From an uncultured Bacteroidales bacterium (lineage in GTDB: Bacteria; Bacteroidota; Bacteroidia; Bacteroidales; CAIWKO01), in NCBI GenBank assembly GCA_964599365.1, contig CAZRFL010000012.1, positions 2,241 through 66,240 of the forward strand: a DNA stretch of 64,000 nt, given 5' to 3'. Within the stretch, counting starts at the first letter, position 1. Each line of letters opens with the position of its first letter. This document shows, piece by piece, positions 3,745-58,848 of the stretch. The translations under genes and the position numbers were made by a program. The notes beneath the pieces are model-generated. The model saw only the letters and a program-made list of their open reading frames with translations, made no database searches and had not been told where the DNA came from.

Positions 3745-3901
3745 CTCTGCGCAAATTTGTAGCTTATTTTAATCTGCGAACTAAGCGAAGCGACCTCATG
3801 AGCCGAATTTATTCTCGAATAATCTGTGGCGATTTTAAACTCAAATTATTTATAAAAGCAAAATTCCCTGTAGTTTTTTTGTTTTGAATCTGCCGAATTA
3901 A

Positions 3902-3909
3902 TATATTTG
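3902..3909 (+). promoter_or_regulatory. Bacteroidota sigma-A -7 box (TAnnTTTG)
   Basis: TATATTTG lies 15 nt upstream of the aroA ATG. Confidence 0.45.
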
Positions 3910-3923
3910 TAGAAAAAAACAAA

Positions 3924-5162
3924 ATGTCCGGCATTCAGATACGCATGGGGTCAACGGGCATAAAAACTTCTGTTGACCTGCCTGCTTCCAAAAGCATCAG
4001 CAACCGTTTGTTGCTCATCAAAGCTTTGTGCAAAGAAAGCTTTACGGTAGATAATCTTTCCCTTTCGGATGATACCCTGATATTACAAAGATGCATTGAG
4101 AACCTTACGGAAGAAGAGGTATTCGATGTGGGCGATGCCGGCACGGCCTTCCGTTTTCTGACAGCCCTTTTTGCCATCACACCGGGTAAGCGCACCCTGA
4201 CAGGTTCGAAACGCATGCTGAAACGGCCAGTAGGCGATCTGGTGAAAGCCCTGAACAAACTGGGAGCCGATATTAGCTATGTCAGCAAAAACAATCATCC
4301 TCCCCTCATCATAAACGGAACAACATTGAGAGGCTCCAAAGTCGATATCAGGGCGGGCATCAGCAGTCAGTTCATTTCGGCCATGTTATTGATAGCTCCA
4401 CGGCTGCCACAGGGCTTGTCTCTTAAACTTACCGGCGACATTGCTTCTAAACCCTACATAAGCATGACTCTGAAAATGATGGAACATTTCGGGGTGTCAT
4501 CACTTTGGAAATGGAAAACCATAGAAGTGGCAAAGCAAGCATATCATCCACGAAATTTCGTGGTCGAATCCGATTGGTCGGCCGCGGCTTTTTGGTATCA
4601 GATAGTTGCTTTTTCCAAAGTGGCCGAAGTAGAGTTAAAAGGTTTGAGCCGGAATTCACTGCAGGGCGATGCGATAGTGGCCGATATTTATGACAAACTG
4701 GGCGTAAAAACTTCTTTTTTGGAGGATTCGGTTTTACTTACGCGTAAGGAAACATTAACTGTTGTCCTGATCAACGATTTTTTTCTGACACCCGATCTCT
4801 TCCCGCCAGTGACGGCTACTTGTGCAGGTTTGAAAATTCCTTTCCGTTTCACCGGTCTGCAAAATCTGGTCATCAAAGAATCTGACCGGGTGATGGCCAT
4901 GATCACTGAGTTAGCGAAATTTGGTTACTATTTTAACTACGATAAGCAGGAAGGCTCCTTGGTATACGATGGCAACAAAGGAAATTTCGACGATGCCGAA
5001 GTCGTCTGCGATTCGCATAACGATCACCGTATTGCCATGTCGCTCGCCCCTATGGCCATGATACATTGCCGTGTCAATCTCAACGATTCCAAGTGTGTCA
5101 GCAAGTCCTACTCGACTTATTTCGACGACCTGCAAAAAGCAGGATTTAAGGTTATTTGTTAA
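3924..5162 (+). CDS. aroA: 3-phosphoshikimate 1-carboxyvinyltransferase (EPSP synthase)
   Basis: LPASKSISNRLLLIKAL, GDAGTAFRFLTA, and DHRIAMSLAP near the C-terminus. Confidence 0.9.
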   Translation: MSGIQIRMGSTGIKTSVDLPASKSISNRLLLIKALCKESFTVDNLSLSDDTLILQRCIENLTEEEVFDVGDAGTAFRFLTALFAITPGKRTLTGSKRMLKRPVGDLVKALNKLGADISYVSKNNHPPLIINGTTLRGSKVDIRAGISSQFISAMLLIAPRLPQGLSLKLTGDIASKPYISMTLKMMEHFGVSSLWKWKTIEVAKQAYHPRNFVVESDWSAAAFWYQIVAFSKVAEVELKGLSRNSLQGDAIVADIYDKLGVKTSFLEDSVLLTRKETLTVVLINDFFLTPDLFPPVTATCAGLKIPFRFTGLQNLVIKESDRVMAMITELAKFGYYFNYDKQEGSLVYDGNKGNFDDAEVVCDSHNDHRIAMSLAPMAMIHCRVNLNDSKCVSKSYSTYFDDLQKAGFKVIC

Positions 5163-5254: not shown

Positions 5255-8065
5255 ATGAAAAAAATCCTTTTGATTATCTTCTGTGCGTTGCTATTTGCAG
5301 GGCAGGGAGTAAATGCACAAACCGATCTTTCGGCCAAAATTCCTGTCACCTCTAAGGTGAAAATAGGAACCTTGCCCAACGGATTGAAGTATTATATCGT
5401 ATACAATGCCAAACCGGAAAAAAAGGTAGAACTGCGTATGGCAGTCAATGCCGGAGCTATTCTGGAAGATGACGATCAGCAAGGTCTGGCCCACTTCTTG
5501 GAACACATGAATTTCAATGGCCTTACCCATTTCCCGGACAACGAACTGGTTCATTACCTCCAAAGTATTGGAGTAGGTTTTGGTAACGACCTGAATGCCT
5601 TCACCGGTTTCGACGAAACCGTGTACATTCTTCCTGTTCCCAGCGATGATGCCGACAAACTCGACAAGGCTTTCACAGTAATAGCCGACTGGGCTCACGG
5701 AACTTTGCTTACTGATAAGGAAATCGATAAAGAGCGTGGCGTTATTTTATCCGAAAGCCGTCTGGGCAAAGGTGCCGACGACCGTATGATGAAGATATGG
5801 TTGCCCAAAATGCTCAACGGATCCAAGTATGGCGAACGTCTGCCCATTGGTATAGATTCCATCATTGCCAATTTCGATTACAAGGTGCTGCGTCGTTTTT
5901 ATACCGATTGGTATAGGCCCGATAACCAGGCTGTGATAGTAGTAGGAGATATGCCTGTTGAAAAGGCAGAACAAATGATCAAAGAAAAATTTGGCGATGT
6001 CAAAAATCCTACCCCCGAGCGCAATCGTCCTGAGACCTTCGAAGTGAAAGCATTCGCACAAAATCAGGCCATGGTGATCACTGACAAAGAAGCTGATGCC
6101 ACTTACGTTAATCTGCTGGGAAATTCGCATGTAAAAAAGCCATCGGTCACCGAAGGCGATTATCTGAACGATATTATCAACAACCTTTGTTTTGAGATGG
6201 TAAATTCACGTCTGGATGAACTGAAGAGTTCGCCCAATCCTCCTTTCATTTATGCTTATGTATATCTGGGCGGCTGGGCACGTGGTTACGAAAACTTCAC
6301 CACAGCAGCCATGTGCGGACCCGATGGTATCAAGCTTGCAATTCAGACCCTGGTTACCGAAAGTTTGCGAGTCAAGAAATTTGGTTTCACCGAAGCGGAA
6401 CTGGCCCGTGCCAAAGCAAAAGTATTATCAGATTACGAAAAGCAATACAACGAGCGCGATAAAACCGAATCGGGCCGCCTGGTTTGGGAATACGTAAATA
6501 ATTTCCTTTCACAGGAACCAATTCCGGGTATTGAATGGGAATATAATTTCGCCAAAACCCATATGGACAAGATCACTTTGAAAAATTTTGATGACATCCG
6601 CAACAAGATCGACATTGGCGACAAATATTTCAGCTACGTAACCACAAAGACCGCTGCCGGACTTCCTTCCGATGCACAGTACAAACAGTGGATTGATGAA
6701 GCTATGAAGAGTAATATAACTGCGTATGCCGAAAAACAAATCGCATCCAAAATGCTCACCAAAGAGCCGGTTGCCGGAAAGATCGTGAAAACAGTGAAGA
6801 ACGAAAAACTCGGAACCACCACCTTTACTTTGAGCAACGGAGCTATTGTTTGTATCAAACCTACCGATTTCAAAAACGATGAGATTTTACTCAAAGGAAG
6901 CAAATTCGGCGGATACAGTGCTTACACCGGAGCCGATTATCAAAGTGCACAGTTCAGCAATAATGTGGTCGAAGAAATGGGCTACGGTTCTTTCTCAACC
7001 ACCGATCTCGACAAATTCCTTTCGGGCAAAAACGTAAAAATATCACCAGTAGTAGATACTTACACTGAGTATATCAACGGAAACAGCACCATTAAGGACC
7101 TGGAAACGATGTTCCAGTTACTTTACCTCAAGTGTACTGAGCCACGTATCGATAAAGAAGCTTTCCAGTCATTCGTCACCCGTTCGAAACAACAGCTCGA
7201 ACTCACCAAACAGAATCCCGAGAATCTCTTCTCCGATACCGTTTATAATATCTTATATCAGGGCAATCCAAGAGCGCATCAGATCGAAAGCCCCACCGAT
7301 TATGATAAAATAAATCTTGATCGCGCTGTGGCATTTTATCTCGATCGTATTGGCAACCCTTCGGGAATGTATTACACCATTGTAGGAACTTTTACTGAGG
7401 CTCAAATCACTCCTCTAATCGAAAAATACATTGGTGGACTGACCGCAAAAGCATCCAAAGCCGAATACAAGGATATGGGAATGAATACCATCAAAGGAAA
7501 ACAGAGCTATACCCTGCGCAAAGGCAGCGAACAAAAAGCCATGCTTACACATTATTTTACTGGGGCATCTACTTATAATCCTGATGATAATTTCCTGTTA
7601 TCTCAGTTGAATGGTGTGTTGAACAACAAAATTACCGATACCATTCGTGAGAAAATGAGCGCCATCTATGGCGGAGGATTCTATGGTTCAGTATCCAAAT
7701 ATCCTAAGGAGGAGCTTACACTTCAATCATATTTTCCCTGCAGTCCCGATAATATTAAGAAGGTTGACTCAGCCTTCCTGAAGTTGGTGGATGGAGTGAA
7801 GATGGCTGGCGGTATTACCGAAAAAGACTGGCAGGGAGTTCGTGAGCCCGGCATACAGAGCTACAAGGTGAACATTAAGAAAAATAGTTACTGGTTGAAC
7901 AATCTTCAGTCGTTTTATCTTAACGGTGTTGATCCTGAAAGAATTCTCACTGTGGAACAAAGATTGCAGGCTATCACTCCTGAAAAACTGATAGAAACGG
8001 CCAAGAAATTCTATAGCACCCCTAATATCTTCACAGGTATGTGGCTGCCGGAGAACAAGAAATAA
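5255..8065 (+). CDS. secreted M16 (pitrilysin/insulinase) family zinc peptidase, two-module form
   Basis: Signal peptide and the inverted zinc motif HFLEHMNF (HxxEH). The 936-aa length fits fused active plus inactive M16 halves. Confidence 0.85.
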   Translation: MKKILLIIFCALLFAGQGVNAQTDLSAKIPVTSKVKIGTLPNGLKYYIVYNAKPEKKVELRMAVNAGAILEDDDQQGLAHFLEHMNFNGLTHFPDNELVHYLQSIGVGFGNDLNAFTGFDETVYILPVPSDDADKLDKAFTVIADWAHGTLLTDKEIDKERGVILSESRLGKGADDRMMKIWLPKMLNGSKYGERLPIGIDSIIANFDYKVLRRFYTDWYRPDNQAVIVVGDMPVEKAEQMIKEKFGDVKNPTPERNRPETFEVKAFAQNQAMVITDKEADATYVNLLGNSHVKKPSVTEGDYLNDIINNLCFEMVNSRLDELKSSPNPPFIYAYVYLGGWARGYENFTTAAMCGPDGIKLAIQTLVTESLRVKKFGFTEAELARAKAKVLSDYEKQYNERDKTESGRLVWEYVNNFLSQEPIPGIEWEYNFAKTHMDKITLKNFDDIRNKIDIGDKYFSYVTTKTAAGLPSDAQYKQWIDEAMKSNITAYAEKQIASKMLTKEPVAGKIVKTVKNEKLGTTTFTLSNGAIVCIKPTDFKNDEILLKGSKFGGYSAYTGADYQSAQFSNNVVEEMGYGSFSTTDLDKFLSGKNVKISPVVDTYTEYINGNSTIKDLETMFQLLYLKCTEPRIDKEAFQSFVTRSKQQLELTKQNPENLFSDTVYNILYQGNPRAHQIESPTDYDKINLDRAVAFYLDRIGNPSGMYYTIVGTFTEAQITPLIEKYIGGLTAKASKAEYKDMGMNTIKGKQSYTLRKGSEQKAMLTHYFTGASTYNPDDNFLLSQLNGVLNNKITDTIREKMSAIYGGGFYGSVSKYPKEELTLQSYFPCSPDNIKKVDSAFLKLVDGVKMAGGITEKDWQGVREPGIQSYKVNIKKNSYWLNNLQSFYLNGVDPERILTVEQRLQAITPEKLIETAKKFYSTPNIFTGMWLPENKK

Positions 8066-8162: not shown

Positions 8163-8945
8163 TTAACAGCCGCTGCTTCTCATGATGCGGAAAACATTCG
8201 ACGATAGCTGAACCACGCTGATAATATCGTAGCAGCCGTCGTCCATCAGCACCAATTCATACTTTCCGTCTTTAAAATAGAAAAGTTTGTAATCGTTTAT
8301 CTTATTATCTATCTCTTTTTGCAGTTCAATGCCCAATTTGTCGGGATGCGCTTTCATTTCTTCCACCTCCTTATCTATATCATCCTTAAAAACTGCCATA
8401 GCTATCAGGAAGCATTCTTCAGCCGAGGTTCCCTGAATGGTCAGACTTTCCGACCAGGATTCATAGCCAAAGCGTTCTTCATGTATCAGGTAAAATCCAT
8501 TATAAACAAAGAATTCCAGGGTGTCAGCCAGAGATAATCCTTCGCAATTATGAGGATAAACATTTTTTCGGCCACTTCGGAAAAAAGTCTTTTCGGCAAA
8601 TTGTTTCAAGGAAGTACATTGGAGCGACGGAGCAGGCAAACTGCTTAAGAATCCATCGAACACATAACCGGTCAGATCGTTATATTTTACTTTCATCCAA
8701 CTTCCTGAAATGCCTTCGGCTGTATAAGGCAGCAGATCGGCTGAAACGCCCCAGGGTTTGGGACAAACTATTACTTTTCCGCCCAGGGGAACTTTTCCTA
8801 TCACATTATTCCCTCCGGGTTCCGAACGTATCTTCAATCCTGAAACCGCCAGGCAGGTGAGTGTATCACCATAATCATAACCGCTAATGCAAAAGGATTT
8901 ACATGGTACCAGCAGGATGACAAGGATATAAAGTATTATTTTCAT
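8163..8945 (-). CDS. secreted hypothetical protein with bacterial SH3-like N-terminal domain
   Basis: Signal peptide. The segment GLKIRSEPGGNNVIGKVPLGGKVIV...WMKVKYNDLTGYVFDGFL resembles SH3b domains. The rest is unassigned. Confidence 0.5.
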   Translation of the reverse strand: MKIILYILVILLVPCKSFCISGYDYGDTLTCLAVSGLKIRSEPGGNNVIGKVPLGGKVIVCPKPWGVSADLLPYTAEGISGSWMKVKYNDLTGYVFDGFLSSLPAPSLQCTSLKQFAEKTFFRSGRKNVYPHNCEGLSLADTLEFFVYNGFYLIHEERFGYESWSESLTIQGTSAEECFLIAMAVFKDDIDKEVEEMKAHPDKLGIELQKEIDNKINDYKLFYFKDGKYELVLMDDGCYDIISVVQLSSNVFRIMRSSGC

Positions 8946-9014
8946 AACGAAATTCTTTAGAACATAAAATTACAGAATGTTTTAATATCGCTTAAAATTT
9001 TCTTCTGCAAAAAC

Positions 9015-9133
9015 CAATGTCAAAGAATGACAATTAATGACTACCAATGACCATTAATGACTACTAATGACAACAATATAACAATAGAACAATTTAGCAA
9101 TAGAACAATTTAACCATCCAGCCATTTAACCAT
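9015..9133. repeat. intergenic word-stutter tract (AATGAC / AACAAT / TTTAACCAT words)
   Basis: aatgacaattaatgactaccaatgaccattaatgactactaatgacaacaatataacaatagaacaatttagcaatagaacaatttaaccatccagccatttaaccatg. Confidence 0.8.
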
Positions 9134-13701: not shown

Positions 13702-13950
13702 GTAGAAGATGAAAACTGGTATAAAACCGGAAGATATAAATTTTTAATTACAATCAATGAGGTTCAATTTGCAAACGAAATAACAAATTGCAAATGATAA
13801 ATGACAAATAAATTACAAAACAATTAAAATTCTCCCATAAGGATGCCTTTGGCAAAATATCAAAACTCGGGATTAATCATGTTTTGAAAATTGTTTTTTT
13901 GATAAGTGAATATTATTTGTTTTTTGCCTTTTGTATTTTGGTGCTTCAAC

Positions 13951-14030
13951 AACAAATGACCATGAATAACTACTAATGACAATGAATGACCACTAATGAC
14001 AATGAATGACCACTAATGACTTTTAACTGA
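13951..14030. repeat. intergenic AATGAC word-stutter tract with a perfect 20-bp tandem duplication
   Basis: AATGAATGACCACTAATGAC occurs at 13981-14000 and again at 14001-14020. It uses the same word family as 9015-9133. Confidence 0.8.
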
Positions 14031-15107: not shown

Positions 15108-15330
15108 CAGGGGGATATTCTCTTATTAACCGTGGGTGAACTCCAACTAACCAGGGGTTTTCTCTTACTAACCGGGGGTGAATTCAAATTAACCGGGGGT
15201 TTTCTCTTACTAACCGGGGGTTTTCTCTTACTAACCGGGGGTGATTGAAAAAAAACGGGGGTGAATCAAAAAAAACGGGGGTGGATTAAAAAAAACGGGG
15301 GTGAACTAAAAAAAATGGGGGTGAACCTCC
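15108..15330. repeat. tandem array of 12 phased G5 tracts (21-bp then 20-bp period)
   Basis: G-runs occur at about 15110, 15132, 15153, 15174, 15195, 15216, 15237, 15257, 15277, 15297 and 15317. Units are TAACCGGGGGTTTTCTCTTAC (identical at 15190-15210 and 15211-15231) and AAACGGGGGTGAAyyAAAAA. Confidence 0.9.
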
Positions 15331-15656
15331 ATTCATCAAATGTTTTTTTTTCGCAATTGCACATTTCACAACCTAATCCGTAGTACGGCTCCGGGCCCTG
15401 CTACAGCTAAAAACCAACTCCTTAAAAATTAATTTCGCTCAACTGGGACTGTTTAAAAAACTTCGTTATTCATTATTCGATATTTCTTCCAATCTTTTCT
15501 CCGTGTATCTTCGTGTACTCAGTGTCTCCGTGGTTCCTTTTATTTATTCACTTTAGGCACTTCCTCTCCTCATATCCCTGTTAATAAATTTTCCCCCGCG
15601 TCCGAACAAATGAATCGCGAATCATGTACTTTAGTACTTTATTAATACGTAAGAGC

Positions 15657-33069: not shown

Positions 33070-33247
33070 AATTTTATTTATTTAATCATTAAATAGCTAA
33101 TGATGAGATAAAAGAATTTGATATTCATGAGTTTAATTAAATCGCAGATTATAAAAATCTTTGTATTCATGATGGAAAAACGAAAATACCATTCCAAAGA
33201 TAATACATCCTGAGTTAATAATAATAGATCCTGTGTTATTTTCAAAT

Positions 33248-33474
33248 CATCCAGTGTCGTTTGCGGATCATCCAGTATCGTTTGCAAACCATCCAGTGTC
33301 GTTTGCGAACCATCCAATGTCGCTTGCAGACTATCAGTGTCGTTTGCGGCCCATCCAGAGTCGTTTGCGGATCATCCAGTGTCGTTTGCAGACCATCCAG
33401 TGTCATTTGTGGACCATCCAGTGTCGTTTGCGGCCCATCTAGTATCGTTTGCGGCCCATCCAGTGTCGTTTGCA
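33248..33474. repeat. 21-bp tandem repeat, 11 copies
   Basis: The CATCC anchor falls at 33248, 33269, 33290, 33311, ~33332, 33352, 33373, 33394, 33415, 33436 and 33457. The consensus unit is CATCCAGTGTCGTTTGCGGnn. Confidence 0.95.
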
Positions 33475-34173
33475 ATGAAAAAAGAGTCGAAAAACACGAT
33501 ATCGATGTAATTTAGCTGTGAAGAATAGCATGGATAATGTGTTGAAATGGATGGTGGTATGAAGTTACTAGCTTGTTTTTATTGTTATATCGTCCCGGGC
33601 GGCGGTGGACACTTACCTGGACTTATCTTTATGCTGCCCTATTTTTTTTGAAGGAGTCCTACGGGCTTATTGTGATATAATTCCCTTAGTGTATCTTCGT
33701 GTCTTGGTGGCAAATTATTTCTTAAATACTCCCATGCAGGAAAAAATGTCTGAACCCTGCCTACGGCAGGCAGGCGCTGATGAAAATGATGAAGATGATT
33801 AATTTTGAAGGGACAAAGGAAAGAACAGAAGAAAAAGTGAACCACAAAACTTTATTACTTTAGTAACAAGGCAGTAATCACCAACGAAACTTAACTTTAT
33901 TACTTTATAAGGTGTATTTTCTATTGTGACCTAATGTGTCTAATGTGGTGAATATTCTCCCTGTAGCTCTTTGTCCGCCGCGGCGGATTTGTGTCCCTGA
34001 CTGCCGTCCGTGGTTCATCTTCTTAGTGCATCTTTGTGTCTTAGTGCCTTGGTGGCAACAAAATAACTTCCCGTTCAATAACCCGCCCTTTCAGGTTCGC
34101 CTGCCCATTGCCGACTGCCGGTTGCCGACTTTATTCTTCTGTCTTCGGTCTTCCATCTTTCCCGAAGGGACCC

Positions 34174-35190: not shown

Positions 35191-35405
35191 TTGGTTGTTT
35201 TAGGATTAGTACAAAATTAGGATTATTTATATTGTTGAAGTGAAGTTTTTTTTTTGCCACCAAATCTCCAAAGCACCAATTTGCACCAAGGTATTTTATA
35301 GATTTTGGTGAGTTTTGGTGTTTTCGTGTCTCGGTGGCTATTTCTTATAAAAAGATAATGCCGAAACAAGGAAACTACTAACGAAAAGCAATAAGTAAAA
35401 AAATA

Positions 35406-46621: not shown

Positions 46622-47272
46622 TTAATTCGATCTGGTATAAACCGTCGTTCCATTATAAATGATACCGGAAACTGAATCAGTAAAGTTTATTTCAAATATG
46701 GTATGATCGTTTATGGTCTTGATGAAACCCTCACCTGAAAATGCATGGGTTTGAGCTGGAGAACCGGCATTCACAATCTGATGCGGAATATTAATAGTGT
46801 CGTTTCTTAGGTCAGCATAAACAACGGCAGTTGCAATATCAGAATATCCTACCACCCAAACACGTTTGTTCAGTATGTTCGAAACAGTCGATACCGCTTG
46901 GTAATAAGTGGTGTCAGTTCCTATTACTGCCATAGCATTATAGTTGCCATTATACTCTTCAGCTTCATTCCTGACCACAACGGTACGTATGGCTTCAGCC
47001 TGATTCCCTGCTGCATCCATTGCCGTATATTTTATATAGTAGTTACCGGCAAAGTTCGTGTCAACTGTCCCTTCACTACTAACTGACAGTATGCCATCAG
47101 CATTGTCGGTGGCTGTCGCTCCGGCATCAGTATAGGGCGTATTTAAGGTGACAATTATAAGGGAAGAGCCTTTTATGGTTATTTCCGGAAGTGTCTCATC
47201 CTTTTTTGAGCAGCCGGCGACCAGAATAAAAATGAATAGGGATATGATAATGGGAAATTTCACAGACTTCAT
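46622..47272 (-). CDS. DUF5011 domain lipoprotein with paralogue-specific C-terminal domain
   Basis: Lipobox VAGC. A DUF5011 module is followed by a C-terminal module of about 110 aa (INIPHQ...FSGEGF) shared with the next two genes. Confidence 0.7.
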   Translation of the reverse strand: MKSVKFPIIISLFIFILVAGCSKKDETLPEITIKGSSLIIVTLNTPYTDAGATATDNADGILSVSSEGTVDTNFAGNYYIKYTAMDAAGNQAEAIRTVVVRNEAEEYNGNYNAMAVIGTDTTYYQAVSTVSNILNKRVWVVGYSDIATAVVYADLRNDTINIPHQIVNAGSPAQTHAFSGEGFIKTINDHTIFEINFTDSVSGIIYNGTTVYTRSN

Positions 47273-47296
47273 TTTTAATAATGCAATTAGGTGTTA

Positions 47297-47932
47297 TCAA
47301 TTCAGTTTGTATTCTCCACGGCCTGTAAACACTGACGAGGAGTCAACAACGGTGTAATTGATGATGAAAGCAGTATCTGCAACAAAACTGCCGGTTCCTG
47401 AAAAAGTAACCAGGCGGGCAGGAATTCCGCAGGTATCAGTTTGCTGAGGGATATTAATAGTGGTTCCTGTCAAGTTTGCAAGCACATGAGCGTTTTTATA
47501 GTAGGCAAATCTGTTAAATTCCAACACATTGTTGGTAGTGGTGACTGATAGTGTGTCGGTATATGTTGAATTGAGAACAATCCCTATGTAGTTTTTTACA
47601 GTAAAAATACCTTGCAGATATAAGGCTGCATCCACAATTACAGTCCTGGTTGCACTCGTTTCATTACCTGCCTCATCGGTTGCTTTGTAAGTTACCGTAT
47701 AGCTGGCTGCCGAATACATATTGACTGTGCTATCAACTGCATAGGTTAGCGTACCGTCCATGTCGTCGGTAACAATAGCTCCAGGCTCTGAATATTTTGC
47801 CGCACTACCCCATTCCACCACATCCGGATTGTTGCCTTTTAATGTGATAATCGGTTTTACTGCATCATTTTTTTTACAAGATACAATAACAACCATAGCA
47901 AGAAAGAGTAATAAATAGGTGAGTTTTTTCAT
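47297..47932 (-). CDS. DUF5011 domain lipoprotein paralogue
   Basis: Lipobox IVSC. PIITLKGNNPDVV...GAIVTDDMDG...YKATDEAGNETSATRTVIV, then NRFAYY...INIPQQ...FSGTGSF. Confidence 0.7.
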   Translation of the reverse strand: MKKLTYLLLFLAMVVIVSCKKNDAVKPIITLKGNNPDVVEWGSAAKYSEPGAIVTDDMDGTLTYAVDSTVNMYSAASYTVTYKATDEAGNETSATRTVIVDAALYLQGIFTVKNYIGIVLNSTYTDTLSVTTTNNVLEFNRFAYYKNAHVLANLTGTTINIPQQTDTCGIPARLVTFSGTGSFVADTAFIINYTVVDSSSVFTGRGEYKLN

Positions 47933-48061
47933 AGTTAAGCGGGTTTTGAAATAATTATCAAATGTACGAATATTTATAAACCTGTTTGAAAAGAGTTCTT
48001 AAATAAAATTTCAAAAGTATGGCAGACTTAATCCTGCACCTATAATATATAATGAGAATGA

Positions 48062-48095
48062 TAAAAAAAAGACTGCCAATTTGGCAGCCTTTTTA
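48062..48095 (-). terminator. rho-independent terminator of the DUF5011 paralogue at 48122-48784
   Basis: On the minus strand, GGCTGCCAAATTGGCAGTC forms a hairpin followed by T8. It lies 27 nt after the stop. Confidence 0.6.
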
Positions 48096-48121
48096 TAAAA
48101 CGCTTTGAACGTTATCAAATA

Positions 48122-48784
48122 TTATTGTTTTGTGAAAACGTCAACACCAGTATAGGTAGCATCTGAAACTTCAGTCAGGTTAACTGTAATAACCATAGGT
48201 GAAGTTGTAACAGTGCCGCTACCTGTAAATGTGCGCATCATAGCTGGGCTTCCGCATGTAAATGATTGTTGTGGTAAAGTACATGAAGTGTGAGCAGAAT
48301 TCAAATCAATGTACGGTGAACAACCTGTATAATATGCAAATCTGCTGAAAATTATACGATTGTTAGTAGTTGATGATGCAGTAATGGTTTCTGTCCATGC
48401 AAAATGCCAGGTTCCACTGATACCATCATCGGTAGCATTATATGTGCCTGCAAATGCTTTTGCATCATTTTCTACAGTAACGGTTCTTTTTACTTCTCCG
48501 GTGTTGCCATCAGCATCTGTTGCGGAGTATGTGTAAACGTAATCGCCTGCTAAATCTTTATTGAAAGCAGGAGCAACCGTAACAGTCACAGTTAATACAG
48601 CACCCTTACTGTCTTTTGCAGTAGCACCTGGGTCGGTAAAAGCTGCATTTAATGATGAAGTAATAGTTGCATCACCATTCAATGTTACTGTTGGTTTTGT
48701 TGTGTTTGTTTTATCACAACTTGTGATCGTAAACATGCCTGCAATAAGAACTACAGACGCGAAAATTAAAGCAATTTTTTTCAT
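48122..48784 (-). CDS. DUF5011 domain lipoprotein paralogue
   Basis: Start at MKKIALIF, lipobox ITSC. The DUF5011 module is followed by SRFAYY...TLPQQ...FTGSGTV. Confidence 0.7.
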   Translation of the reverse strand: MKKIALIFASVVLIAGMFTITSCDKTNTTKPTVTLNGDATITSSLNAAFTDPGATAKDSKGAVLTVTVTVAPAFNKDLAGDYVYTYSATDADGNTGEVKRTVTVENDAKAFAGTYNATDDGISGTWHFAWTETITASSTTNNRIIFSRFAYYTGCSPYIDLNSAHTSCTLPQQSFTCGSPAMMRTFTGSGTVTTSPMVITVNLTEVSDATYTGVDVFTKQ

Positions 48785-48919
48785 TTTTCTTTGGTTTTGG
48801 TTAATAAACATTATTGGTTTTTAATTATTCTTAATTAGCAATTATGGTGCAAAAGTACAGAAAAAATAAAATTTTCTCGATTTTTTTTGAAAAAAAATTT
48901 TGTTTTAGAAATTTTATAT

Positions 48920-48927
48920 TACTTTTG
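48920..48927 (+). promoter_or_regulatory. -7 box TAnnTTTG
   Basis: TACTTTTG lies 32 nt upstream of the ATG at 48959. This supports the shorter start. Confidence 0.5.
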
Positions 48928-48958
48928 CAATTCAAAATCCTTAAAAAAAGTTAAAAAA

Positions 48959-49219
48959 ATGAAAAAAGTATTTACTTTAATCGTAGCTGCCAGTATGGTT
49001 TCTCTTATTGCTTGCGGACCAAGTGCTGAAGAAAAAGCTGCAAAAGAAAAAGCAAAACAAGACTCAATTGCTAATGCTCAGAAAGAACTGGCTATCCAGG
49101 ATTCAATCGCAGCAGTAGAAAAAGCAAAACAAGATTCAATTGCTAACGCACAGAAAATTGCTGATTCAATCGCAGCAGCTGCTGAAGCAAAAAAAGGTGG
49201 TAAAAAAGCCAAAAAATAA
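48959..49219 (+). CDS. small lipoprotein with about 11-residue A/K/D/S-rich repeats
   Basis: MKKVFTLIVAASMVSLIAC lipobox, then (E/Q)KAKQDSIANA-type repeats and a KKGGKKAKK tail. Confidence 0.65.
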   Translation: MKKVFTLIVAASMVSLIACGPSAEEKAAKEKAKQDSIANAQKELAIQDSIAAVEKAKQDSIANAQKIADSIAAAAEAKKGGKKAKK

Positions 49220-49381: not shown

Positions 49382-49684
49382 ATGAAAAAATTATTAAGTG
49401 TATTAGTTATCGCCGGTATGGCAGCTTTAGTATCCTGCGGACCAAGTGCAGAAGAAATTGCAGCTAAAGAAAAAGCAAAACAAGATTCAATTGCAGCAGT
49501 TCAGAAAGCAAAAGATGATTCAATTGCAGCAGTTCAGAAAGCAAAAGATGATTCAATTGCAGCAGCTACAAAAGCAAAAGAAGATTCAATTGCAGCAGCA
49601 GCAGCTAAAAAAGGCACAAAAGGAACAAAACCAACCACAAAACCTGGTCAGGTTACTAAAAATGCTCCTAAAGGAAAAGGTTGA
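49382..49684 (+). CDS. small lipoprotein with exact 11-residue (33-bp) repeats, paralogue of 48959-49219
   Basis: Lipobox ALVSC. QKAKDDSIAAV is repeated with DSIA at an 11-aa period. At the DNA level there are four 33-bp units at 49472-49603. Confidence 0.65.
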   Translation: MKKLLSVLVIAGMAALVSCGPSAEEIAAKEKAKQDSIAAVQKAKDDSIAAVQKAKDDSIAAATKAKEDSIAAAAAKKGTKGTKPTTKPGQVTKNAPKGKG

Positions 49685-53339: not shown

Positions 53340-56300
53340 CTAACGCAACAGGGTAATATTCCCTTTTTTCAGGTATTTCACCTTATTGTGGCAGGTGGCA
53401 TCCAGGTAGTAGACAAACACTCCGGGATCGCATTTCTTACCACGGTAGGTTCCGTCCCATCCAATGTTCATGTCGTGGGACTCGAATACTTTTTCGCCCC
53501 ATCGGTCGTAGACCAGGAAGTCCATTTCAGAAACCATTTTACTTCTGACGAATAATACATCGTTACGGGCATCTCCATCGGGAGTGAATGCATTGGGAAC
53601 ATACACATAAGGATCGACACAGAAAACTTCCAGAACGGTTATTTTTAGAGTATCCAGATAGGTGCATCCGTTAGGGTCGGAGATGGTCAATATGTATGTG
53701 GTGGTTTGAGTGGGACTGGCAATGGGGTTGGCTGAATTGGGATCATCAAGACCAGTGGAGGGTACCCATGTGTAACTGCAGGTTGGGATAGTTGTTGCAT
53801 GCAGACCGGTTGACTGTCCCTGATATATGGTATCCTTATCGGAATATACATCCACATGGCTGAATATAGAATCAACAATTAGTGTAAACGATTCTGTCAA
53901 CTGACAAAGTTCTGAATCGTTAATAGTAACAGAATATGTTCCTGCGCAAAGCCCACTGATTTGATTTGTAGCACCACCGGTACTCCAGCTATAGGAATAG
54001 GGGGGAGTACCGCCTGTCATATTTAATGTAATACTTCCCACACAGGCTTCATCACAGGGAAGATTCACCAGTTGAGCATTAGTCAATAGTGGATCAGGTT
54101 GGGGAAGTATAACTGTAGAAACCGAAATACAGGTGGATAGATCTGTAACTGTTACCGTATAAGTGCCGGCACATAATCCGGAAATAGTATCGTTGGAGCC
54201 TCCGTTACTCCAGTTGTATGTGAAAGGAGGAGTCCCTGCGGAGATCAAAACTGCTGCCCATCCATCGCAACTATCGTGGCAGGCTGGCGGATGTATGTTA
54301 AACGAATCGGCCACTACAACAAATGAAACCAACACACTGTCAATGGCAGTGCAATACCCGTTGTCGACCGACACATAATAATAAGTAGGGGCTGTGATGT
54401 TGGTTGTGATGGAGGGATTGGAATGGGGCATATTTAACCAGTCCGTAAAGTCGTGATTGGTCGACCAATGGAAAACATTCGCATCCTGCCCCGTATTTGC
54501 TGTTAAGGTTATTTGCCCGTCGCAGGTGGTGGTGTCGCTTCCCGCAAAGGCATCCAGATTATATACCACCAGGTTTTGTCGAAGTGTATCAGTGCAAACT
54601 CCGTTCGAAACCAATAGTGTGTAAGTCATTGATATGGGTGGATTGGCAATGGGATTGCATATGTGAGGATCGCTAAGGAAGAATGCCGGTGACCACTGGA
54701 AGGTTACTGTAGAATCGCCCGTAGGCAATATCCCAATCTGTGTGAAATCGCCATTGCATATACGTTTGGTGGGAATAGTATCACTGGTATTGGAAAGTAC
54801 CAATACCTGTTTTGCAATGGTATCGGAGAAGTTACAGGTTCCGGTATCGGTCACCGCCAGGGTCACAATGTAAATGCCGTTGTTATTATAATAATGTGTG
54901 GGGTTGGTGAGAGTAGAATAGGTCCCGTCGCCAAAATCCCATGAAAAGGTCATGCCTACTCCTCCTGAGTAAGAAGTGTTATTGAAATGTACCGAATCAG
55001 GCAGACAGATGACAGGTGGAAGATGGAAATCGGCAATGGTAATAGGCAACATGAAATCGAACTTGAAGGTCCCGTTGTTGCAATTATTGCTGTTGTTGGT
55101 GTTCGACCAGGCTCCGGGTGTGGTAGGGAAATCGTCGTTGCTGCCGCAACCGGCACAGACTGACTGATATATTTTTCCTTTACGGTCGAAACGCGAAGTG
55201 CCCCCGTCAACGTGTTCCTGGCTGAAAGGTCCCCCGAAATACGTTCCGTATTCCATGGCCGAAGCATCATCTTTAATTACCAAAAGGTAGAAATCATTGT
55301 TATCTGTTGATGATTGAAAGGCATTACCCGAAATAGGCAGACCACTGGTGCCACCGCTGCCGTTGAGCGAACCTCCCCATCCCGATAGGTAAATTTTAGC
55401 ACAGAGATCGACCAGGAATGCTGTTGGGGATATATTGATGATGCCGCTTCCGGTTCCGAATGCTGTGGACCACACACGGCTGTTGAGTTTAGGATTGAAT
55501 TTGGTAATGAATTGTCCTCCTCCCGGTTGGTTCCAGGCAGCATTTTGTATAAATACACTCCCTGCATCTGTGGTTTGTCCGTAAACAAAAATGTGACCTT
55601 TTTTACTTCGATCCATGAGGTAGTTTTGATCGTATGACGATGAACCGTAGTAGGTGGATGCCTGTATGCTACTTCCGTTCGGAGCAATTCGTGTGATGAA
55701 TCCATCGGATGTTCCCCCGTTGTAAGTAGTTTGGTAAGCGCCTGGTGTGCTGGGAAAATCGGTGGAGGTGGTTCCTCCGCAAACATAAATGTTCATGGTG
55801 TCGTCGACGGTAATACCATAAATGGCATCCAATTGCGAGCCTCCCAAATAGGACGACCATATCATGTTTTGAAGGTTGTTGTCGAGCACACTGATACATC
55901 CGTCAAGAGTTCCTCCTGCTGAAGAAGGCTGAAATACACCGGGGGTGACAGGGAAATCGGCCGAAGAGGTAGTGGAGACTATATACACATTGTTGTTTAT
56001 GTCGATATTGATCTCTCCCCGGGCACCGTCGGCATAATTGTGCGAAAGCGGAGCATAAAGATTAAGACCATCGTTGCCCGTTCCACCAAGATAAGTGGAC
56101 GACAATAGTTGATTGCCTGCTGCATTGAGCTTGGCAACCCACATATCCACTCCCAAAGCAAAAGTGAGCACATTGTCGTAGGTGATATTTCCACCTCCGT
56201 TGAAAGTTGCATCGAAAGCATTGGCCCCCATGGGAAAATCAGGGGAACCCGTGGTGCCGAAAAGCAAAAGGTTGCCATTAATGTCGACTATAGTACTATG

Positions 56301-57329
56301 CGGAAGATCGTTTTTAGAACCGCCCAAATAAGTGGCATAAAGGCGCGAAGTTCCGGAAGGGTTGTATTTAATAATGGCAACATCACACCCCCCGCTATAG
56401 GTGCCTTCGCCTCCGCCAAAGTTTACCTGAAAAGCTCCGGGCGAAACCGGATAGCCGTTAACAATATCGTTAAAACAAATGCCGCCTGAATAGGTATCGC
56501 CCAGATCATCGTAAGTGGCTGTGAAGCCCCAGTTATCGGCCATGGATCCTGAATAGGTGGAAAATATCAAAACAGGGTCAATCACCAGTTCGTAATCTTT
56601 GTTATAGCCTTCCGGAAATTCAAAACTCAGACGGTTTTTCTTCAGAGCGAAATTGCAGGATACTTCGATACGCTGCCCGTTGATCATCTGATAGGCAATA
56701 GGCGCCAATTCAGTAACCTGGTTGACGGTAGTTTTGATGATAAGGTTGCGTTGTTGAATAGAAATGTTGGTCACACCATCGTAATCGATGGCGATGTTGC
56801 GGGCATCGGCTCCTTGGTGAAGAATGAACTGATACTTGAGCAATTGTTTGTTTTCGAGCAGCTCCAGATCAATTTTATCATAAAGGTTGATGTAGGAGAT
56901 TTTTTGAAAGTTGAGCACACCTGAGGCCCATTTGGAGCGATCACTGCCCAGAAAATAATTGCTATAGTCTGACCCCGGTTCAGAAGGTATGATCTCAACC
57001 TCGTGATTGGAGTTTACGAAGGTAGCCCGATAAGCGTGATAATCTATGATATATTCGGAAGAATCGGGATGAATTTCTTTGTTGACAGGATTGAGCTTGT
57101 AGGAGAGCAGTTTTTGATATTGCTGCATGTTGCGGAAGACGAATTGCAGTCCATTGGGCAGGCATTGAAGGTATCCTTCATTGAGGTCGGCCTTGTAGCG
57201 AACACGGGCATCCCATTGGCCTTTGTTTTCGACGAAACGCAGGTGCTGAGAGGTAAGCGAGTCTTTTTCGTGGGCAAAGGAAGCTATGCTTAACAACAGA
57301 AATGATAAGAGAGCGATAAACTTTTGCAT
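53340..57329 (-). CDS. giant cell-surface adhesin-like protein: SBBP beta-propeller repeats, PKD domain, SprB-type repeats, T9SS type-B (CHU_C) CTD
   Basis: Signal peptide and N-terminal FVENKGQW. PKD module (FSWDFGDGTYSTLTNPTHYYNNNGIYIVTLAVTD). Cys-rich repeats (C.DSCDG...GGTPPY.Y.WS.G). The C-terminus reads VPNAFTPDGDARNDVLFV...YDRWGEKVFES...GWDGTYRGKK...GNITLLR. Confidence 0.8.
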   Translation of the reverse strand: MQKFIALLSFLLLSIASFAHEKDSLTSQHLRFVENKGQWDARVRYKADLNEGYLQCLPNGLQFVFRNMQQYQKLLSYKLNPVNKEIHPDSSEYIIDYHAYRATFVNSNHEVEIIPSEPGSDYSNYFLGSDRSKWASGVLNFQKISYINLYDKIDLELLENKQLLKYQFILHQGADARNIAIDYDGVTNISIQQRNLIIKTTVNQVTELAPIAYQMINGQRIEVSCNFALKKNRLSFEFPEGYNKDYELVIDPVLIFSTYSGSMADNWGFTATYDDLGDTYSGGICFNDIVNGYPVSPGAFQVNFGGGEGTYSGGCDVAIIKYNPSGTSRLYATYLGGSKNDLPHSTIVDINGNLLLFGTTGSPDFPMGANAFDATFNGGGNITYDNVLTFALGVDMWVAKLNAAGNQLLSSTYLGGTGNDGLNLYAPLSHNYADGARGEINIDINNNVYIVSTTSSADFPVTPGVFQPSSAGGTLDGCISVLDNNLQNMIWSSYLGGSQLDAIYGITVDDTMNIYVCGGTTSTDFPSTPGAYQTTYNGGTSDGFITRIAPNGSSIQASTYYGSSSYDQNYLMDRSKKGHIFVYGQTTDAGSVFIQNAAWNQPGGGQFITKFNPKLNSRVWSTAFGTGSGIINISPTAFLVDLCAKIYLSGWGGSLNGSGGTSGLPISGNAFQSSTDNNDFYLLVIKDDASAMEYGTYFGGPFSQEHVDGGTSRFDRKGKIYQSVCAGCGSNDDFPTTPGAWSNTNNSNNCNNGTFKFDFMLPITIADFHLPPVICLPDSVHFNNTSYSGGVGMTFSWDFGDGTYSTLTNPTHYYNNNGIYIVTLAVTDTGTCNFSDTIAKQVLVLSNTSDTIPTKRICNGDFTQIGILPTGDSTVTFQWSPAFFLSDPHICNPIANPPISMTYTLLVSNGVCTDTLRQNLVVYNLDAFAGSDTTTCDGQITLTANTGQDANVFHWSTNHDFTDWLNMPHSNPSITTNITAPTYYYVSVDNGYCTAIDSVLVSFVVVADSFNIHPPACHDSCDGWAAVLISAGTPPFTYNWSNGGSNDTISGLCAGTYTVTVTDLSTCISVSTVILPQPDPLLTNAQLVNLPCDEACVGSITLNMTGGTPPYSYSWSTGGATNQISGLCAGTYSVTINDSELCQLTESFTLIVDSIFSHVDVYSDKDTIYQGQSTGLHATTIPTCSYTWVPSTGLDDPNSANPIASPTQTTTYILTISDPNGCTYLDTLKITVLEVFCVDPYVYVPNAFTPDGDARNDVLFVRSKMVSEMDFLVYDRWGEKVFESHDMNIGWDGTYRGKKCDPGVFVYYLDATCHNKVKYLKKGNITLLR

Positions 57330-57348: not shown

Positions 57349-57356
57349 CAAATATA
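57349..57356 (-). promoter_or_regulatory. -7 box (CAAAnnTA on the plus strand) for the adhesin gene
   Basis: CAAATATA lies 20 nt upstream of the ATG at 57329. Confidence 0.4.
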
Positions 57357-57586
57357 GGGAAATAATTTGAAATTGCCGAAAGTTTGAGAATTTCAGGAAG
57401 AAATTAGATTACGAGGGAGGGTGAAAAATATAATGGACTTTTCTCAGGTTATGACTTCTGAAAACTTCTCCTGAGCATTATTGATACGAAGAATATTCGG
57501 GATAAAAAAAACATTCGTGCAAAAATTTATTCCTAAAGTGTTTTATATACTGTGCTTTATACTTGAGGAGTTCCCAAACTTCATTA

Positions 57587-57922
57587 ATATATGGAAATTG
57601 TTTGAATTCCGGATAGACCAGTTTCCCGCGCGGGAAACTGGCCTATACACCTGTACAGACATGTTTCCTTCGCGGGAAACTAGTCTATACAACAGTCTAG
57701 ATGTGTTCGCTTCGCGGGAAACTCACCTATACACCTGTACAGACGTGTTTCCTCTGCGGGAAACTAGTCTATACAACATTATAGACGCATTTCTTTCGCG
57801 GGAAACTCATCTATACACCTGTACAGACATGTTTCCTCCGCGGGAAACTCACCTATACAACCGTACAGACCAGTTTCCCGCACAGCTAATGCATCTATAC
57901 AACTGTATAGACCCATTTACTT
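57587..57922. repeat. 42-bp tandem repeat (about 7.5 units; 84-bp higher-order) carrying two alternating palindromes
   Basis: The CGCGGGAAAC anchor falls at 57629, 57671, 57713, 57755, 57797 and 57839. Palindromes are GTTTCCCGCGCGGGAAAC (57621-57638) and CTATACAnnTGTAyAG (57643-57658; perfect at 57895-57910). Confidence 0.95.
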
Positions 57923-58080
57923 TCTTCGAAACAGGGTATTAATTTGTTGCAATTAGCAAATTTATTTCAAATCTCCCTCCAAGAGGGCGAAGTCAGAATA
58001 TTGAATGATTAAAATGGCATTCTTTATGCCAGATAAACAAATATCCCTGCTCCCTCTAACTTATAACTAACTCCTAATGC

Positions 58081-58848
58081 CTAAAAATTCATAAACCCCT
58101 GCCGGGTGATCACCCTCAGGAAGCTTTTGGAGAAAGCCACATTGTCGCCTTTGGTGTAGCGCTTTTGTGTAAAGATCTGCGCCAGCGTCTCCAACTGGTT
58201 TTCTTCAAGAAGTTTGGCCGTCAGCGGCAGGCTTTCTTTTTCTTTATAGAATTTATCTATGGCTTTGGCAGTGTATTTTTTGTATTTTTCCTGATGAATA
58301 ACGGCTTCCATGGGCAGGCGGTCTGTTAATTCCGGAGTTTCGTCGGGATAACCTACCACCAGTGTGGTAATTGGAACAACACCCTCGGGACAATCAAAGA
58401 AATCAACCAGTTTGTCGGCATTATAGGTAGTGGTTCCCAGATAGCATATCCCCAAACCATGGGCCTCGGCGGCAATGGCTACATTTTGGGCTGCCAGCAA
58501 GGCATCGATGGCGGCAGTGGTAAACGAAAGGAAATTATCGTAGCCCGGCTCGGCCTTGCGCTGCAGGCACCATTGGTTAAAACGGTTGAAATCGGCACAG
58601 AAGGTGAGCACCACGGGAGCTTGCAGCACCATATTCTGTTTGAAATGGTATTCCCAGAGTTTTTTCTTTTTGGCCTCATCGCGGGTAACGATGATGCTAT
58701 ACACCTGCATATTGCCGGTGGTCGAAGCGCGTGTCCCGGCTTCCAGAATTTGTTTGAGTACATCCTCAGCTATGGGATCAGATTTGTATTTGCGTATGGT
58801 TCGATGACCCATAATGGTTTTAATAGCATCCATGGTTTTGTTTTTCAT
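58081..58848 (-). CDS. NADPH-dependent nitroreductase-family oxidoreductase (NfsA-like)
   Basis: IMGHRTIRKYKSDPI...ILEAGTRASTTGNMQVYSIIV. Start chosen at MKNKTMD because the longer ORF runs through the upstream palindrome. Confidence 0.8.
   Translation of the reverse strand: MKNKTMDAIKTIMGHRTIRKYKSDPIAEDVLKQILEAGTRASTTGNMQVYSIIVTRDEAKKKKLWEYHFKQNMVLQAPVVLTFCADFNRFNQWCLQRKAEPGYDNFLSFTTAAIDALLAAQNVAIAAEAHGLGICYLGTTTYNADKLVDFFDCPEGVVPITTLVVGYPDETPELTDRLPMEAVIHQEKYKKYTAKAIDKFYKEKESLPLTAKLLEENQLETLAQIFTQKRYTKGDNVAFSKSFLRVITRQGFMNF

Follow-up and report, generated by a model that had tools for sequence, protein, structure and literature searches.

The nitroreductase-adhesin spacer and its array

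The stretch of DNA analysed here, called the window throughout, comprises 64,000 nucleotides of contig CAZRFL010000012.1 from an uncultured Bacteroidales bacterium (NCBI GenBank assembly GCA_964599365.1). Two genes on its minus strand, one for a nitroreductase and one for a large adhesin that is a cargo protein of the type IX secretion system (T9SS), are separated by a spacer of 752 bp, and this spacer holds a tandem array of a 42-bp palindromic unit, the nature and possible function of which are considered here (Table 1). The array lies 258-593 bp from the ATG of the adhesin gene (57329) and 159 bp from the stop codon of the nitroreductase gene (58081). Its edge is 256 bp upstream of the conserved -7 box of the adhesin gene, TATATTTG (57349-57356), which is thus outside the array.

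In total, about 7.5 units of 42 bp are arranged head to tail (57613-57924). Tandem Repeats Finder (TRF) reports a period of 42 bp at 57621-57878 (6.1 copies, 75% matches) and, with the top score of 362, a period of 84 bp at 57613-57878 (3.2 copies, 80% matches), and the self-identity of the array is 0.73 at a lag of 42, 0.78 at 84 and 0.20 at 21. Six exact copies of the anchor GCGGGAAACT-N3-CTATACA occur on the plus strand (57630, 57672, 57714, 57756, 57798, and 57840), compared with 0.01 expected by chance, and neither this anchor nor the palindromes discussed below were found outside the array within the window. Pairwise identities between units range from 64 to 86%, with the odd units 83-86% and the even units 86% alike. 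Degeneration is visible at both ends: unit 7 shares 64-71% identity with the other units and is followed by a partial eighth one, divergence is greatest in the edge units, and before unit 1 there is a fragment of a B arm. This pattern of a homogenised centre and diverged edges is the usual signature of a satellite.

Each 42-bp unit consists of two inverted copies, H' and H, of a 21-bp half-unit H (GCGGGAAACTnnnCTATACAn), H' being its reverse complement. Palindrome A is the H'|H junction and palindrome B the H|H' junction; an inverted pair detected in the array (I2) has arms of 37 nt that are 81% complementary, with dyads every 21 bp. If an array has a period P of 42 bp and a dyad at position c, a second dyad necessarily lies at c + P/2, i.e., 21 bp off. 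Because period and dyad symmetry combine in this way, A and B are one property of the array and not two features.

An earlier note on this DNA, made from the letters alone, had described a strict 42-bp array with an 84-bp higher-order repeat, and TRF, the lag identities and the six exact anchors all confirm this. It had also placed the array correctly in the spacer beyond the proximal -7 box, with all coordinates and distances right. Palindrome A is indeed perfect at 57621-57638, the perfect stretch extending to 24 bp (57618-57641), and palindrome B at 57895-57910 has the sequence given for it, CTATACAACTGTATAG. The notion of two different palindromes has to be abandoned, however, since a single 42-bp palindromic unit gives both by symmetry. 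The count of about 14 dyad-symmetric sites was too generous: scored over 10 nt on either side of each centre, the A site of unit 1 (10/10) and the B site of unit 7 (8/10) stand out, but the other 12 reach only 4-7/10 (mean 0.64).

Table 1. Features of the nitroreductase-adhesin spacer and its flanks, in positions of the window.
Feature	Position	Strand	Remarks	Basis
Adhesin gene	53340-57329	-	1329-aa T9SS cargo protein: DUF7948, SBBP, PKD, SprB repeats, CHU_C sorting domain	Pfam
Proximal adhesin -7 box TATATTTG	57349-57356	-	~20 nt before ATG	Sequence comparison
AT-rich lineage-specific spacer	57357-57612		Between array and adhesin promoter	blastn of flanks
Core minisatellite	57613-57924		Seven 42-bp units and degenerate edges; 84-bp higher-order repeat	TRF, repeat finding, unit table, identity matrix
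Unit starts	57621, 57663, 57705, 57747, 57789, 57831, 57873			
Only perfect A-type dyad, 24-bp palindrome CCAGTTTCCCGCGCGGGAAACTGG	57618-57641		First unit	Sequence, 10/10 complementarity
Best B-type dyad, TCTATACA-AC-TGTATAGA	57894-57911		Last full unit	Sequence, dyad score
Partial eighth unit ATTTACTTTCTTCGAAACAG	57915-57934		Decayed A-type site at array edge	Unit register; dyad score 3/10
Candidate -7 box TAAATTTG	57956-57963	-	~30 nt upstream of array in the direction of both flanking genes	
Second small GC hairpin	57975-57987			
Terminator-like hairpin, then T run (TGGCATAAAGAATGCCA TTTTAAT)	58015-58031	-	50 nt past nitroreductase stop	Terminator scan, sequence
Nitroreductase gene	58081-58848	-	255 aa from first ATG	Pfam; exact protein on Joint Genome Institute (JGI) and Logan contigs

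Several other identities of the array were considered and rejected. It is not a CRISPR array (short palindromic repeats that are clustered and regularly interspaced), as the earlier note had already held: the whole 42-bp unit repeats, the lag-42 identity of 0.73 extending over all columns, and there is no unique segment that could be a spacer. The Pfam-annotated large open reading frames (ORFs) of the window include no cas gene and likewise no regulator, transposase, RAYT, ParA/ParB or Rep gene. An origin of replication (oriC) was rejected: no DnaA box (at most one mismatch) lies in the spacer, their total in the window is at chance level and the GC skew has no inflection near 57.7 kb. A plasmid or phage origin was rejected for lack of similarity in plasmids, phages or viral contigs; the setting is chromosomal, with a synteny of GldB, DNA alkylation repair and nitroreductase genes that is conserved in many metagenome-assembled genomes (MAGs).

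The earlier note had further allowed for an ORF through the array (57481-57942), which would encode a 14-aa repeat, being a conserved expressed protein. Homology, gene calls and the substitution pattern rule this out and leave the interpretation as a repeat array intact: the ORF has no homologue among 5.8 billion protein clusters, it was skipped by JGI gene calling on three contigs (L015-L017), and in every frame the three codon positions contain 5/6/7 of the variable columns, without third-position bias. Its only Pfam match, PF22013, is sub-threshold (21 bits vs. a cutoff of 27). Rfam 15 gives no gathering-score match in the window, and the sub-threshold matches of the array are to generic miRNA-hairpin and sRNA families (18-33 bits vs. 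cutoffs of 88-119). No convincing terminal inverted repeats were found, the best being 12-17 nt at 76-83%, and neither the window nor any fetched locus contains the flanks of the array a second time. The AT-rich segment between array and adhesin promoter contains no repeat or significant ORF and has, by blastn, no homologue in the window or the fetched loci. On the other side of the array, the box TAAATTTG fits TAnnTTTG, the -7 promoter consensus of the Bacteroidetes, without a good -33 TTTG at the proper spacing and marks, by its sequence, a candidate start site of transcription across the array.

Occurrence of the array and of other intergenic repeats

No variation of the array was seen within the strain, which is present in JGI samples 3300044987, 3300044991, and 3300045131 and in SRR35365870. 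Four full-length assemblies from different samples and runs, i.e., three JGI metagenomes (L015-L017) and Logan run SRR35365870 (L234), all of them consensus assemblies, have a spacer that is 100% identical and contains the same number of units. Three short-read contigs of the same strain end inside the array, at window positions 57859 (L018), 57752 (L235), and 57631 (L236). These breaks are unsurprising, because short-read assembly is expected to break at any repeat, and such breakage implies that arrays of this kind are under-represented in MAGs.

Four syntenic nitroreductase-adhesin loci are available from MAGs of other Bacteroidales (L126-L129), with an adhesin N-terminus that is 64-67% identical. 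Their spacers measure 78, 367, 146, and 78 bp, respectively, compared with 752 bp in the window, and contain no tandem array of similar size or period; TRF finds runs of 8-12 bp in about two copies. The TATATTTG box stands at a similar short distance before the ATG in three of these loci (L126, L128, and L129), all of which are without the array, and was not seen in L127. Since the box is kept in loci that lack the array, the adhesin promoter is ancestral and independent of the array. Judging from the sequence comparison, the array itself appears to have arrived with about 600 bp of lineage-specific DNA.

Relatives with an 87-92% identical nitroreductase have a different downstream neighbour, at gaps of 52-214 bp. 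This junction was compared in L019 and L126-L129 and, by gene maps, on the contigs of P0003, P0004, and P0007. Upstream of the nitroreductase gene, the relatives share a conserved set of GldB, a 310-aa ORF and the DNA alkylation repair gene. The gene that follows it is the adhesin gene, a 244-aa ORF (L019; nitroreductase 92% identical) or a CCG/Fe-S gene pair (next to P0007; 87%), and the junction is therefore a recurrent synteny breakpoint.

Searches beyond these loci did not recover the unit. The pattern GCGGGAAACT-N3-CTATACA gave 14 single chance matches only in 185,579 GTDB species genomes, and palindrome A alone gave 27 isolated hairpins across many phyla in the GTDB genomes. A two-anchor 42-bp pattern yielded 27 unrelated 21/42-bp arrays in the JGI metagenomes and no relative of the 42-mer. 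The sole JGI match with the AGTTTCCCGC/GCGGGAAACT palindrome lies on an unrelated metagenome contig (L105), and the second half of its unit is unrelated. This 42-bp array (3827-4052 of that contig) has a similar palindrome, GAGTTTCCCGC..GCGGGAAACTC, which is perfect in the first unit, and is located about 150 bp upstream of a cobalamin-riboswitch-like sequence and a TonB-dependent receptor gene; its likeness to the unit studied here may be partly forced by the search pattern.

The window is rich in unrelated intergenic arrays (TRF: 9013-9133, 13955-14020, 15111-15325, 33228-33475, and others) and accounts for 6 of the 14 non-coding arrays with a period of at least 15 bp found in 1.37 Mb of related loci, the array studied here included. 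Their neighbours include genes for xanthine dehydrogenase, EPSP synthase/MurA-type and DUF4290/MurA-type proteins, adenylosuccinate lyase and a transporter, and the window's other three T9SS cargo genes have no such array. As arrays thus stand beside housekeeping genes and not beside the other T9SS cargo genes, array formation looks like a property of the genome rather than a matter of adhesin regulation.

A period of 21 bp is the most frequent one among non-coding arrays with a fundamental period of at least 12 bp in the window and 0.94 Mb of related loci (6 of 23 arrays, plus the 42-bp array studied here); none is at 19, 22, or 23 bp, and the numbers are small. The members of this cluster (window 33228-33475 and 15111-15325; L019 7932-8213; L031 11226-11543; L049 7094-7273; L090 2631-2704; L233 1617-1697) have unit sequences that are unrelated to one another; what they evidently have in common is a length of two helical turns. 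Downstream of the nitroreductase gene, 21-bp arrays that differ in sequence are present in two near relatives, L019 and L233. In L019, the closest genome, the array consists of about 12 palindromic 21-bp units (TCGGGGAnCTCCGrCAA), is located between a 122-aa LytTR-domain ORF and the 244-aa ORF, which is of unknown family (the region 8373-8741 is also listed), and shows its better folding on the strand that is antisense to these neighbours. In L233, where the nitroreductase is 88% identical, the unit is GTCACCAAAGGAGGnnnTGTG and the array starts about 130 bp past the stop codon, the contig ending inside it.

Other repeats were noted in passing. The array at 9013-9133 is built of an AATGAC decamer (period 10/20) and another at 13778-14020 of AACAATTT (period 8/16), both in spacers by genes for xanthine dehydrogenase accessory proteins or subunits; a similar AACAATTTAACAAT run occurs in L019 (~6920-6950). 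A dispersed intergenic motif, TATCTTCGTGTCTTGGTG, has four matches compared with 0.12 expected (33692-33709, 34029-34054, 35319-35336). A related element, TCTCCGTGTATCTTCGTG..GTGTCTCCGTGGTT, is present in the window (15498-15540) and in L019 (~6975-7012) at non-orthologous sites; this may be a small family of dispersed repeats. Two small ORFs that lie next to each other and are lipoprotein-like (48887-49219 and 49382-49684; 110 and 100 aa) contain 11-aa KAKxDSIAAxQ repeats, so that the 33-bp tandem repeat at 49456-49630 is coding. Just before them, three tandem paralogous genes (46622-48811; 216, 211, and 229 aa) each encode a Bact_surface_Ig-like domain.

Decay of the array and alternative explanations

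As a baseline, the neutral decay of a perfect (H'H)n array with a two-subunit higher-order history was simulated, at a unit identity of 0.77 compared with 0.75 observed. The observed dyad complementarity of 0.64 compares with 0.70 ± 0.06 in the simulations, and the observed best-strand folding energy of -159 kcal/mol with -172 ± 25 kcal/mol. The RNA of the minus strand, the strand of both flanking genes, has a folding energy of -163.5 kcal/mol (z = -13.9) vs. -123.4 kcal/mol for the plus strand and thus folds 38-40 kcal/mol better. However, a gap of 38 kcal/mol was reached in 27 of 400 neutral simulations and is not significant; it is usually the G+T-rich strand that folds better in other arrays. 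A strand-specific RNA structure based on a G-U bias, promising by eye and by folding, therefore fails against the neutral simulation. Taken together, the tests of decay, folding and the two half-units (see below) provide no robust evidence that dyads, hairpins or a binding motif are maintained.

We interpret the array as a young, lineage-specific intergenic minisatellite of a hairpin-forming palindromic unit that has no dedicated role in control, and assign this interpretation a probability of roughly 0.58. A hairpin-forming palindromic sequence of about 42 bp would have multiplied in head-to-tail orientation within an enlarged nitroreductase-adhesin spacer, probably by replication slippage or unequal recombination, both of which are favoured by hairpins. 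Later amplification would have proceeded in steps of 84 bp, followed by decay through point mutation. The array would have no dedicated trans-acting partner and would be no part of the way the adhesin gene was ancestrally controlled, this gene having retained its proximal promoter. Any effect in cis is probably incidental: upstream DNA would be displaced from the promoter by about 600 bp, and a transcript reading through from the nitroreductase gene, if there is one, would carry a run of stem-loops, which could stall exonucleases or polymerase, as is thought for the REP/BIME and BrickBuilt repeats discussed below.

A number of observations weigh against this interpretation. In the first six units, 4 of the 21 columns of the half-unit GCGGGAAACTnnnCTATACAn are variable compared with 14 of 21 in the mirror half (Fisher P = 0.004 for this post hoc split; P = 0.04 when corrected for the best half-window), a contrast that might stem from constraint on an asymmetric site of 20 bp that recurs every four helical turns, although with all seven units the signal is gone (P = 0.54). 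The B hairpins of four units have energies of -5.5 to -7.9 kcal/mol on the minus strand vs. -1.1 to -2.1 kcal/mol on the plus strand; the substitutions in them are G-U compatible on the minus strand only, and constraint at the RNA level would give the same result. The clustering of periods at 21 bp is not predicted by a purely neutral slippage model. Our coverage of the genome amounts to 64 kb, so that a family dispersed at the density of BrickBuilt (1 per ~120 kb) would escape it. Finally, the non-conservation of the array may be compatible with a recently acquired function.

The earlier note had proposed three roles for the array, i.e., an operator array silencing or looping the adhesin gene, a transcribed multi-hairpin RNA and a contingency locus, none of which is upheld by the present data. 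For the first, which we deem unlikely but still deserving of serious thought, a putative protein would bind the asymmetric 20-bp sequence GCGGGAAACT-N3-CTATACA with two major-groove contacts one turn apart, at six sites spaced 42 bp (four turns) with weaker inverted copies interleaved, and the resulting filament or loop would silence or insulate the adhesin promoter. Six units in a row have the 20-bp site in exact form, with variation in the remainder of the unit, the half-window contrast points the same way, and spacings of 21 and 42 bp correspond to whole helical turns. Moreover, the different 21-bp palindromic array of L019 sits right beside a LytTR-domain ORF; proteins of the LytTR type bind direct repeats with a spacing of about 21 bp. 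This LytTR ORF, however, has no significant match in the window by tblastn and phmmer, both single-sequence searches of limited sensitivity, and the window's large ORFs include no regulator, ParB or Rep gene. Beyond the array, the 64 kb contain no copy of the motif, the orthologous adhesin loci (L126-L129) are without the array, the dyads decay at a neutral rate, and the conservation signal is marginal and lost with unit 7.

The second role would require a minus-strand transcript through the array, whether the nitroreductase mRNA extended at its 3' end or an RNA of its own starting from TAAATTTG (57963-57956); like REP/BIME, its 12-14 stem-loops would stabilise the upstream message or keep transcription from running on into the adhesin gene. 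The stronger folding of the minus strand, the B hairpins favouring it in four units, the orientation of both flanking genes, the -7-like box just upstream and the weakness of the terminator-like hairpins that precede it are all consistent with such an RNA. Nevertheless, we think it improbable, since the strand gap falls within what neutral decay produces, the better-folding strand in other arrays usually follows G+T content, and the array of L019 folds better antisense to its neighbours. Furthermore, the A-type hairpins lean slightly to the plus strand, with those of units 3 and 5 nearly lost (-1 to -3 kcal/mol), no Rfam family matches, and the array is not conserved in the orthologous loci.

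It is also conceivable, but we consider it decidedly doubtful, that the array belongs to a clade-wide class of intergenic arrays in which the period is held at two helical turns (21/42/63 bp) and the sequence is free to turn over. Its members would be the arrays at window 57613-57924, 33228-33475, and 15111-15245, that at L019 7932-8213 and those of L031, L049, L090, and L233; in three close relatives, the nitroreductase gene is followed by an array of 21 or 42 bp with another sequence. Such a class, if true, would point to a phase-sensitive process, e.g., a regulator binding direct repeats spaced by about 21 bp, the array of L019 having a LytTR-domain ORF at its side, or a nucleoid protein that selects for curvature.

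The third role, gain or loss of 42- or 84-bp units switching or tuning adhesin expression in populations, draws on the slippage-prone nature of tandem arrays, on the position upstream of a surface adhesin gene, a typical target of phase variation, and on the three assemblies that break inside the array, but is very improbable in view of the invariant unit number in the four full-length assemblies, the distance of more than 250 bp to a conserved core promoter that does not contain the array, a 42-bp step that keeps the helical phase, unit identities of 64-86% that lower slippage rates, and contig breaks that any repeat assembled from short reads would give.

Comparison with known repeat families and implications

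One of the closest parallels among known repeats is BrickBuilt, a minisatellite/MITE (miniature inverted-repeat transposable element) found in Porphyromonas gingivalis, with a unit of 23 nt, 19 copies per genome, a conserved leader and tail with terminal inverted repeats, strain-variable copy number and measured promoter activity (Klein et al., 2015; PMC4596501). Both occur in Bacteroidales and are spacer-less, strictly intergenic tandem repeats (BrickBuilt at 49-591 nt from coding sequences). Both are species-specific, lacking BLAST matches elsewhere as well as Rfam matches, and both show dyad symmetry and predicted long stem-loops. They also share a unit of which one half is more conserved, an intact natural terminator of the upstream gene and a vicinity to T9SS cargo genes, which (as genes with the C-terminal domain of the Por secretion system, PorSS CTD) adjoin several BrickBuilt copies. 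In contrast to BrickBuilt, the unit of the array described here is 42 nt long and palindromic in its own right; a leader, a tail and inverted terminal repeats were not found, and the array is known from a single copy and showed no variation. The single copy in 64 kb compares with about 0.5 expected at the density of BrickBuilt (PMC4596501).

Repetitive extragenic palindromic (REP) sequences and bacterial interspersed mosaic elements (BIMEs) of enterobacteria and pseudomonads are dispersed in more than 100 copies per genome and linked to RAYT, a Y1 transposase (PMC2817692, PMC3333891). Their extragenic imperfect palindromes (REP ~20-40 nt), regularly spaced in alternating orientation, resemble the H/H' layout; they form stem-loops in RNA and usually lie between co-directional or convergent genes. 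They differ from the array in that the latter occupies one locus in 64 kb, is unaccompanied by a RAYT gene in the window and has no copy in related or species-representative genomes, and that its half-units are only 21 bp and abut without linkers.

That the array might be the internal minisatellite of a mobile MITE-like (BrickBuilt-type) or REP/BIME-type family dispersed outside the window has little to recommend it. The extra 600 bp or so of lineage-specific DNA around the array, relative to the orthologous spacers, would suit such an element, and BrickBuilt, itself species-specific, intergenic, dyad-symmetric and often found by T9SS cargo genes, occurs about once per 120 kb, which makes one copy per 64 kb plausible (PMC4596501). 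Against it stand the poor terminal inverted repeats, the single copy of the flanks among the window and fetched loci, the absence of a transposase or RAYT gene in the window and a translated search in which no other copy was called as an ORF.

In architecture only, the array resembles sopC of plasmid F and other partition-site or iteron arrays, in which about a dozen direct repeats of ~43 bp each contain an inverted-repeat motif bound by a protein (12 x 43 bp in sopC, each with a 16-bp inverted repeat bound by SopB; PMC3177203), a likeness that speaks for the phased operator. However, sopC adjoins sopA and sopB on a plasmid, while the array is chromosomal, in housekeeping synteny, without a partition or replication gene or any similarity to plasmids or phages, and its units are far more diverged.

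The BOX elements of Streptococcus pneumoniae and the mycobacterial interspersed repetitive units (MIRUs) are likewise intergenic arrays of 40-55-bp modules; these can adopt stable secondary structure, and the arrays vary by whole modules. They are multi-copy, have conserved terminal modules (boxA/boxC) or overlap the stop and start codons of flanking genes, and belong to other phyla; the array shares no sequence relationship with them. Membership of the BrickBuilt, BIME and sopC classes fails, or is doubtful, on copy number, flanking structure or partner genes.

As it stands, the array matters little, in that it adds one species-specific hairpin-forming minisatellite to a known class. What it does remove is a tempting regulatory story for a T9SS adhesin. 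More generally, a tandem array of one palindromic unit has alternating palindromes by mathematical necessity, and these should not be counted as two binding sites, and the simulation of neutral decay offers a simple baseline against which selection on dyads, hairpins or strand asymmetry can be judged. If the modal period of 21 bp were to hold genome-wide, it would raise a real question about DNA phasing or an unidentified repeat-binding factor in these bacteria.

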